Assembly: GCF_044324875.1 (NCBI RefSeq)
Contig: NZ_CP172185.1
Source: Escherichia coli
GTDB lineage: Bacteria; Pseudomonadota; Gammaproteobacteria; Enterobacterales; Enterobacteriaceae
Length of the DNA: 64,000 nt
Direction: 5' to 3' (one strand)
Part shown: piece after piece, positions 55,369 through 55,652 of the stretch
How the letters are laid out: every line of letters begins with the position of its first letter
Position numbering within the stretch: the first letter of the stretch is position 1
Translations under genes and position numbers: made by a program
The notes under the pieces: generated by a model
What the model was told of the DNA's origin: nothing
Databases searched by the model: none
Seen by the model: only the letters and a program-made list of their open reading frames with translations

Positions 55369-55570
55369 AACGGCTCCCGGTGTTGATGAATGCGGTGAAC
55401 TAACGACACTACAAATAAAACATTTATTTCATTTTTATAAATAGTGAAAATTATATTTTGAGTGCCAGTTAACACTTTTGAGATGTATTAGATAAATTTT
55501 GTTATCAATCTCACAACGCCGAGGAAGATATGTCCCTCCATTACAAGGGGGGGAGGGAATAAAAACTGTA

Positions 55571-55602
55571 CCATCCCCTCTCCCGTTGGGAGAGGGGATG
55601 GG
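55571..55602 (-). terminator. Perfect 14-bp stem hairpin after iolD (putative intrinsic terminator)
   Basis: CCATCCCCTCTCCC-GTT-GGGAGAGGGGATGG; on the coding (minus) strand it is followed by a T-rich run. Confidence 0.55.
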
Positions 55603-55652
55603 TGAGGGGAAAAAAGAAAAATGAAATGAAAATTTCGTTACGACAGGAAAAC

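Follow-up and report, generated by a model that had tools for sequence, protein, structure and literature searches.

The spacer between iolD and iolG in the iol island of Escherichia coli holds a perfect 14-bp hairpin that, judged by its sequence, is a further copy of a dispersed E. coli repeat, known as BoxC, PIT, or TMECO, rather than an element specific to the iol genes. On balance, we consider it probable that this hairpin is a passenger in a variable part of the spacer and that the AT-rich flanks to either side of it form an internal promoter, controlled by IolR and CRP, from which iolG and the genes beyond it would be transcribed. The evidence comes from the window, by which we mean the whole 64,000-nucleotide stretch of E. 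coli DNA that was analyzed and in which all positions are counted, and from related spacers in other genomes.

Locus and gene context

The 3.4 kb around the iolD-iolG gap was matched in only a minority of E. coli strains, 51 of 5,426 complete genomes, with an identity of 99.9 to 100% to the chromosomal copies; 7 of the copies are borne on plasmids. The spacer region of E. coli ATCC 8739, which also bears the island, is 99.8% identical to the window. A 100% identical E. coli chromosome carries a RefSeq annotation in which the gene order on the minus strand, past the divergent iolR, is iolA, iolD, a 284-bp gap, and iolG; 3′ of iolG follow genes for a substrate-binding protein, an ATPase, and a permease, a Gfo/Idh/MocA gene, and then iolC, iolE, and iolB. 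IS elements flank the island on both sides in the annotation of the identical strain.

The gap (positions 55369 to 55652) is the sole large one in the array from iolA to iolB, all other junctions measuring 8 to 51 nt. The last gene before it, iolD (55653 to 57578, minus strand), encodes a 641-aa TPP enzyme according to the list of open reading frames (ORFs), RefSeq, and the Pfam domains TPP_enzyme_N/M/C. The first gene past it, iolG (54382 to 55368, minus strand), encodes an inositol 2-dehydrogenase of 328 aa that Pfam places in the GFO/IDH/MocA family, and the gene after iolG encodes a periplasmic binding protein (Pfam). An initial reading of the DNA without database searches (the sequence-only reading) had described the gap as separating iolD from dehydrogenase and ABC importer genes, and the ORF list, RefSeq, and Pfam all confirm this arrangement. 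A Shine-Dalgarno sequence for iolG, GGGAG (55374 to 55378, minus strand), can be read directly from the sequence and is kept in close relatives. The IolR protein encoded in the window belongs to the MurR/RpiR family by RefSeq and carries HTH_6 and SIS domains by Pfam, and because of these two domains we refer to it as RpiR-type.

A small ORF within the gap was considered and rejected, as the listed ORFs at 55435 to 55752 and 55272 to 55475 only overlap iolD or iolG out of frame. A search of positions 54000 to 57000 against Rfam at a permissive E value returned noise alone (eukaryotic miRNA and snoRNA models far under their gathering scores), so no described RNA family is present in that interval.

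The 14-bp hairpin and the second palindrome

Inverted-repeat search and folding both identified a hairpin with a perfect 14-bp stem and a 3-nt loop on the minus strand (55571 to 55601). Its arms, at 55571 to 55584 and 55588 to 55601, are 100% complementary over their 14 nt. The perfect 14-bp inverted repeat of the sequence-only reading is therefore confirmed, except that its end had been put at 55602, one base too far. The inverted-repeat pattern matches once in 64 kb and in 0 of 100 shuffles. RNA transcribed from this repeat in the sense of the coding (minus) strand reaches a folding energy of −28.6 kcal/mol (z = −5.8), a value equalled in 0 of 200 shuffles, and the hairpin is invariant across the four E. 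coli chromosomal versions compared.

The second palindrome, TCCCTCC-N12-GGAGGGA (55533 to 55558), does exist close to where it had first been reported (about 55533 to 55560), with arms at 55533 to 55539 and 55552 to 55558 that give a 7-bp stem and a 12-nt loop, but it does not go beyond chance: it folds at −11.1 kcal/mol (z = −1.6), and 12 of 200 shuffles equal it. Its left arm is disrupted in one E. coli lineage (NCTC10444), and neither the plasmid nor the Enterobacter version of the spacer offers a collinear counterpart to the segment that holds it. This weak palindrome is probably a by-product of local rearrangement. When the segment from the hairpin to the CRP-like box described below was compared with the plasmid version, the inverted orientation scored 19 (reached in 4 of 2,000 shuffles) versus 16 for the same orientation (52 of 2,000), a difference that is suggestive, and no more than suggestive, of a local inversion beside BoxC.

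Assignment to the BoxC/PIT/TMECO family

BoxC was reportedly described by Bergler (1992) and Bachellier (1999), and the PIT element by Hoyne and Maher (2000/2002); TMECO denotes a triplex motif. The iol copy spans 55569 to 55613 on the minus strand, where it reads TTTTCCCCTCACCC-AT-CCCCTCTCCC-AAC-GGGAGAGGGG-ATGGTA, and the 14-bp stem represents the BoxC hairpin lengthened by CCAT/ATGG. A profile hidden Markov model (HMM) built from 22 published K-12 BoxC members (supplement 69 of PMC2267715) matched positions 55613 to 55569 of the minus strand with an E value of 2.1e-6 and 23.8 bits, over model positions 1 to 47 of 51. On the plus strand, 55576 to 55608 is an exact match to the TMECO consensus, 5′-CCCTCNCCC-N3-6-GGGNGAGGG-N3-GGGNGAGGG-3′ (PMC4666352); this match is single in the window and occurred in 0 of 100 shuffles. 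The names BoxC and TMECO, and the PIT element introduced by Hoyne and Maher, all refer to a single kind of element (PMC4666352). The exact consensus match together with the match to an HMM of 22 members establishes, on sequence, the membership of the hairpin in this family.

A 101-nt query centered on the hairpin found partial matches of 81 to 90% identity in 3,660 of the 5,426 E. coli genomes, at six or fewer places per genome and all in unannotated DNA. Copies were examined at nrdA-nrdB, yraQ-dolP, and lldD-trmL (after lldD), and these three share a common layout of CCCCTCTCCC, a loop, GGGAGAGGG, 2 to 3 nt, and GGGTGAGGGG. E. coli strains differ in whether BoxC or REP elements occupy the nrdA-nrdB gap; in MG1655, REPs are found there, and BoxC is not annotated in that genome. 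Membership of the iol hairpin itself in the REP/BIME family was rejected on sequence comparison. The three blocks of the iol copy stand in the order needed for an intrastrand triple helix of single-stranded DNA, and 8 of 9 triplets are formally possible with a one-base register shift when the sequence is read in this way; two of the four E. coli chromosomal versions carry mutations in the third block.

TMECO elements are always intergenic, have been assigned no function, and have been linked to raised local sequence variability; palindromic TMECO pairs are often partly deleted, with a hairpin still left (PMC4666352). The account of Hoyne and Maher (2002) given in PMC4666352 credits PIT elements with neither promoter nor terminator activity and with no effect on RNA polymerase.

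The spacer in related genomes

A genome-wide IolG search yielded 11 relatives that have iolD as the immediate upstream neighbor of iolG, the two genes being 252 to 712 bp apart: an E. coli plasmid, Enterobacter cloacae, Citrobacter, two Edwardsiella, Pluralibacter, Enterobacter sp. Ag1, Pectobacterium, and three Photorhabdus. BoxC was detected only in the E. coli chromosomal, E. coli plasmid, and E. cloacae spacers. The plasmid spacer has a fully palindromic double BoxC, whose inner stem reads CCTA/TAGG versus CCAT/ATGG in the chromosome, a two-sided change that keeps the pairing. In the E. cloacae spacer, a 46-bp unit derived from BoxC is repeated 5.2 times in tandem between a forward and a reverse BoxC. 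In a qualitative comparison, made without matched control sites, local variability was thus apparent as a single copy with a rearranged flank, a palindromic pair, and a 46-bp array, all between flanks that are almost unchanged. The AT-rich flanks of the chromosomal and plasmid versions are almost identical, while their coding DNA is about 86% identical.

The spacers of Citrobacter, Edwardsiella, Pluralibacter, Enterobacter sp. Ag1, Pectobacterium, and Photorhabdus contain hairpins of unrelated sequence, so that a stable hairpin of some kind follows iolD in each of the 11 related spacers. The hairpin lies before the distal of two operator-like palindromes (see below), not after it, in Pluralibacter, Enterobacter sp. 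Ag1, and Photorhabdus. Such variability at the hairpin position fits the published link of TMECO to local instability and to the partial deletion of palindromic copies. Because every relative has a hairpin after iolD, selection for a stem-loop at this place is possible, and BoxC may be no mere passenger.

Possible effects of the hairpin on transcripts

In the iolA-iolD transcript, the BoxC stem-loop would be very stable and could act at most as a leaky terminator or as a barrier to 3′ exonucleases. We regard it as rather unlikely that the 14-bp hairpin and the U run after it form an efficient intrinsic terminator, at which the iolA-iolD transcript would stop and which would thereby divide the array into two transcription units. 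The stem is stable and GC rich (−28.6 kcal/mol) and, with 10 G-C pairs, lies within the range for terminator stems (GC rich, 5 to 14 bp, short loop); it is followed by TACAGUUUUUAUU and was flagged by a terminator scan. It also comes right after the end of iolD, with a conserved promoter-like module following it, and canonical-looking terminators occupy the equivalent place in Photorhabdus and Enterobacter sp. Ag1. However, the tail after the hairpin (TACAGTTTTTATT, 55558 to 55570, minus strand) is terminator-like by the lenient scan only. The U5 run in this tail (UACAGUUUUUAUU) begins at its sixth position, 6 nt past the stem, with just one U among the first five bases, and the terminator character of the hairpin is therefore borderline. 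The single site found by the lenient scan does not exceed the 1.5 sites expected from shuffles. A d’Aubenton-Carafa-type score, computed by hand and not with a program, was near zero, a borderline value as well.

The closest relatives, namely the plasmid and E. cloacae versions, lack the U-run tail, with no U run behind their BoxC structures. Among the 12-nt tails of the relatives, only those of Enterobacter sp. Ag1 and Photorhabdus showed a clear T run directly past the strongest hairpin, and none was found in the plasmid, E. cloacae, Citrobacter, both Edwardsiella, or Pluralibacter. The inactivity of PIT/BoxC in the published test, as reported through PMC4666352, also speaks against an efficient terminator, but the iol copy has a longer perfect stem than typical K-12 copies and a nearby U run, and such negative tests may therefore not be applicable to it. 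The suggestion of the sequence-only reading that a terminator or processing site in the gap splits the array into two units is partly supported: a promoter-like module is conserved at fixed spacing in 10 to 11 of the relatives, and its palindrome recurs upstream of iolA, but the terminator is borderline.

An alternative that we regard as unlikely is that the spacer acts through its RNA but not as an intrinsic terminator. Rho would then cause polarity after iolD, or the hairpin would block exonucleases and so give the iolA-iolD and downstream segments different stabilities, or both. This reading is compatible with, and not exclusive of, the internal promoter that we favor. The transcript between 55547 and 55624 (78 nt) contains 30 C versus 11 G, which places it at the 99.96th percentile of the window, and it sits inside a 284-nt untranslated stretch. 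This extreme richness in C and poverty in G makes Rho-dependent polarity a reasonable complement, as C-rich untranslated RNA around the hairpin could load Rho; about half of the C-rich tract is, however, locked in the hairpin. Hairpins of unrelated sequence in every relative would also suit a role in RNA, as would the strain-dependent alternation of BoxC and REP between nrdA and nrdB, REP elements being known to block 3′-to-5′ exonucleases. Published PIT work, in the form in which PMC4666352 relays it, found no effect on RNA polymerase and argues against an RNA-level role. We consider it distinctly unlikely that the BoxC copy has been co-opted as a fast-evolving tuning element. In that case its stem-loop, the nearby U run, and the C-rich RNA, situated between two IolR operators and right behind iolD, would set the read-through from iolA-iolD into iolG and the genes beyond, and its length would set the distance between the operators.

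Candidate IolR operators

Two 18-bp palindromes of the form ATGRAA-N6-TTYCAT bracket the repeat, each with one mismatch, and are likely, as predicted from sequence, to be operators of the RpiR-type repressor IolR. The distal palindrome, O2 (ATGAAATGAAAATTTCGT, 55621 to 55638), starts 15 nt past the iolD stop codon, and the proximal palindrome, O1 (ATGAAATAAATGTTTTAT in the minus-strand reading, 55415 to 55432), lies 46 nt upstream of the iolG ATG. A third palindrome, with no mismatch (ATGAAACAAATATTCCAT, 59157 to 59174), lies upstream of iolA in the divergent iolR-iolA region and serves as a reference. The sites read ACGAAA-N6-TTTCAT (55621 to 55638), ATGAAA-N6-TTTTAT (55415 to 55432), and ATGGAA-N6-TTTCAT (59157 to 59174). 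All three have the geometry of GGAA-N6-TTCC, a palindrome found in Caulobacter upstream of iol genes repressed by IolR (PMC2597717), with a core that is GAAA or GGAA and not strictly GGAA. The proximal block and the block upstream of iolA are identical at 24 of 30 positions.

The pattern ATGRAA-N6-TTYCAT, with one mismatch or none, matches seven times in the window versus 0.67 expected, with two of the matches in the gap and one (0 mismatches) upstream of iolA; this enrichment is partly circular, since the pattern was derived from those same sites. Only conservation across genera is independent support for the palindrome as a candidate site. The proximal palindrome occurs in all 11 related spacers that share the module, and no block in the alignment of 12 spacers is better conserved than its core, TGAAATAAATGTTTTA, which is nearly invariant down to 69% IolG identity. 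Other conserved blocks in the 12 aligned spacers are TGTGA-N6-TAACA, AAAATGTTAAC, and CAAAAA(C/T)ATAAYTTYCA. A regular expression found the distal palindrome in 10 of 11 related spacers, and the eleventh (L013) has TTAGAA-N6-TTCCAA by eye; the plasmid version of this site is nearly identical. In the form RCGAAA-N6-TTYCAT, this second palindrome stands directly past the iolD stop codon in close relatives or past the hairpin in distant ones.

The same operator-like palindrome recurs in several iol control regions beside an RpiR-type iolR, namely, at the three window sites and at the same sites in the plasmid locus. Within the 19 kb of that locus, its sole matches are four, all at homologous places, including the one upstream of iolA (L006, 13230 to 13247). 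Two copies of the palindrome in the Caulobacter iolC promoter have been tested by mutation (PMC2597717), and IolR of Salmonella oligomerizes and binds most iol promoters at two or more sites, although binding regions and not a consensus were reported (PMC5349611). The idea that the gap holds a binding site for a regulator, raised in the sequence-only reading, may thus apply to candidate sites in the AT-rich flanks, but not to the two palindromes that it named.

CRP-like box and candidate internal promoter

Between the hairpin and the proximal palindrome lies a CRP-like box, TGTGAGATTGATAACA (55500 to 55515, minus strand), which fits TGTGA-N6-TCACA with one mismatch. It is the sole match in the window, yet 20 of 100 shuffles yield at least one match. 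The box was found by regular expression in 10 of 11 related spacers; the remaining one (L016) has AGTGA by eye. The left half of the box is conserved in relatives. In the window and in the 10 relatives with a regular-expression match, the box starts 84 to 86 nt before the proximal palindrome. A candidate −10 hexamer, TATAAT (55450 to 55455, minus strand), is contained in the conserved block CAAAAA(C/T)ATAAYTTYCA of the 12-sequence alignment and reads CATAAT or TATAAC in most relatives. A sigma-70 scan found no full promoter on the minus strand and one weak antisense match, and no −35 element was recognizable by eye beside TATAAT; as there is no full sigma-70 match on this strand, we propose the hexamer tentatively. 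Classical CRP boxes are centered at −41.5, −61.5, or −71.5. With TATAAT as the −10 element, the center of the CRP-like box was counted at about −64.5, off both −61.5 and −71.5. CRP binds the iol promoters of Salmonella and is required for growth on inositol (PMC10783015).

Taken together, these features suggest the following arrangement. BoxC, a GC-rich element of C-block, C-block, and G-block found in intergenic DNA of E. coli and Enterobacter, would be a passenger in the part of the spacer that varies in length. IolR would bind the two palindromes that bracket it, and the CRP-like box and TATAAT, whose distance to the proximal operator downstream of them is fixed, would constitute an internal promoter that is repressed by IolR and dependent on CRP. 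From this promoter, iolG, the ABC importer genes, iolC, iolE, and iolB would be expressed as a second unit. It is possible that IolR bound at both operators cooperates and loops out the BoxC segment. The two palindromes are about 206 bp apart, center to center, in the window; the spacing varies between relatives, and a phased IolR DNA loop is therefore not supported.

The opposite arrangement, in which a single operon is transcribed from the iolA promoter only and the spacer is nonfunctional filler left by repeat insertion, appears very unlikely to us. It would agree with the lack of a canonical sigma-70 promoter on the minus strand in our scan and with the tight junctions elsewhere in the array. 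Filler, however, would not be expected to preserve a module with a fixed spacing of 84 to 86 nt and nearly invariant blocks across genera whose IolG proteins are only 69 to 77% identical, nor flanks that are almost unchanged while the coding DNA has diverged by 14%. Least tenable is the view that the palindromes themselves are protein-binding sites, with the 14-bp inverted repeat, for example, as an IolR operator: a perfect dyad is the classical shape of the site of a dimeric regulator, but this one belongs to a dispersed family with copies at unrelated loci in the majority of E. coli genomes and is absent from the iolR-iolA control region. Nor is it conserved in other genera: Citrobacter, Edwardsiella, Pluralibacter, Pectobacterium, and Photorhabdus lack it in their orthologous spacers but retain the AT-rich palindromes there.

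Comparison with known systems

The iol copy resembles known BoxC elements in its three blocks (CCCCTCACCC, CCCCTCTCCC, and GGGAGAGGGG), its exact TMECO consensus, its intergenic position, and its capacity to form a hairpin. As with other BoxC/TMECO elements, the neighboring DNA is rearranged between close relatives, and a palindromic version in one relative and a single copy with a hairpin in another correspond to what has been described for palindromic TMECOs. In contrast to most K-12 copies, in which the stem is 9 to 10 bp and often has a mismatch, the stem of the iol copy is a perfect 14 bp. In place of the usual TAA or CGG, the second loop has AT, which corresponds to GAT on the G-rich strand. 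The iol copy also lies in a horizontally acquired island and on plasmids, whereas no association with plasmids or mobile elements was reported in PMC4666352. REP/BIME elements within operons (malE-malF; nrdA-nrdB in MG1655) are comparable as dispersed palindromic repeats between cistrons that form stable RNA stem-loops, but the BoxC sequence family is unrelated to them, and an RNA-stabilizing or terminating role has not been ascribed to BoxC.

The predicted operators resemble that of Caulobacter crescentus IolR (PMC2597717) in their 4-6-4 core, in the presence of two copies per promoter region, and in their location upstream of dehydrogenase/ABC transporter genes and iolA-type genes; the repressor likewise has HTH_6 and SIS domains. 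They differ in being shifted toward AT (GAAA/GGAA-N6-TTYC) with conserved flanking AT/TG, and in that the copies are about 206 bp apart, one of them just past the stop codon of the upstream gene. With the iol island of Salmonella enterica serovar Typhimurium, where IolR has at least two sites per promoter and CRP and H-NS also act (PMC5349611, PMC10783015), the E. coli island would share several promoters repressed by IolR and dependent on CRP, as we infer them here, along with AT-rich control regions and two repressor sites of different character per promoter. The two islands differ in gene order and in transport, with an ABC importer here and IolT transporters in Salmonella, and reiD is absent here.

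Significance

The iol hairpin adds one more copy to an already known family of repeats, and nothing about it is categorically new; the layout around it resembles that of RpiR-type IolR regulons and of the Salmonella iol island. Our results are of practical value for the annotation of a perfect palindrome inside an iol array: because it is a known dispersed repeat, a striking palindrome in a catabolic array should not be read as an operator or as a proven terminator. An effect of the iol BoxC copy on read-through would be of moderate interest. If the copy did serve as a tuning element, the instability of TMECO would translate into lineage-specific expression ratios within the inositol pathway, and BoxC would thereby gain its first assigned function. 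The spacer also offers a clear example of TMECO-associated instability inside a regulatory region, on a mobile island as well as on plasmids. Finally, ATGRAA-N6-TTYCAT, with two copies before iolG and one before iolA, is an operator candidate for the RpiR-type IolR of enterobacteria.

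Expansion and possible rearrangement of the iolD-iolG gap

The window copy of BoxC (also known as TMECO), at 55569-55613 on the minus strand, lies beside a segment of ~25 nt (GGAAGATATGTCCCTCCAT, plus strand) that matches the plasmid and Enterobacter versions of the gap better in inverted orientation. When window positions 55520-55570 were compared with positions 9600-9640 of the iol locus of Escherichia coli plasmid p14EC033c (L006), the inverted-match score was reached by 4 of 2,000 shuffles. The same window region also carries ~29 nt of extra sequence. Judging from these alignments, the T run and the second palindrome may both have arisen through a small inversion together with an insertion. 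In Enterobacter cloacae DSM 26481, a 46-bp unit derived from BoxC is repeated in tandem 5.2 times (L007 2579-2818; 93% matches), expanding the gap to 482 bp. This array is bordered by two full BoxC elements, one forward and one reverse; the promoter module is intact.

The sole sigma-70-like match in the region (window 55469-55498, plus strand; TTAACA, 18 nt, TAAATT; 9 of 12 positions) is antisense to the iol genes and falls within the conserved module preceding iolG, and since the shuffle mean was 0.7, it is probably a chance occurrence. The inferred IolR operator palindrome, ATGRAA-N6-TTYCAT, was also matched within the iolR coding sequence, ~216 nt into the gene (59602-59619; ATGAAACAGTTATTTCGT), and this match is retained in the plasmid version (L006 13677-13694). 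It may be an autoregulatory site, or its retention may be a mere by-product of coding-sequence conservation.

Among other genomes, E. coli C51 has an iolD annotated as a frameshifted pseudogene, indicating decay of the island in at least one lineage. An iolD-iolG pair 67 to 69% identical to the enterobacterial pair was found in a MAG labeled uncultured Desulfovibrio sp. (L015), where the 384-bp gap contains neither any of the conserved palindromes nor the CRP-like box. Either regulation differs in this genome or the contig was misbinned.

BoxC elsewhere in the window, on mobile DNA, and within nrdA-nrdB

A second, truncated BoxC-like remnant was observed in the window at 26541-26575 on the minus strand (CTCCCCAGAGGGGAGAGGGAACTGCCAGT). 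It matches positions 22-50 of the BoxC HMM (E = 1.4e-4), lacks the CCCCTCACCC block, and is similar to the published K-12 BoxC member eco:8.

Searching E. coli genomes with the 101-nt hairpin query placed BoxC at 26 plasmid places. Plasmid p14EC033c carries a copy at L006 9638-9682, and a copy was also located within an IS-flanked island. These locations differ from a previous report in which no association of the TMECO motif with plasmids, phages, or transposons was found (PMC4666352).

The nrdA-nrdB gap of SaT040 and FORC_042 is 88 bp long and holds one BoxC copy (L002 1478-1565), while that of MG1655 is 233 bp long and holds REP-type palindromes (L087 352-584). Depending on the strain, therefore, two unrelated repeat families occupy a single intra-operon position.
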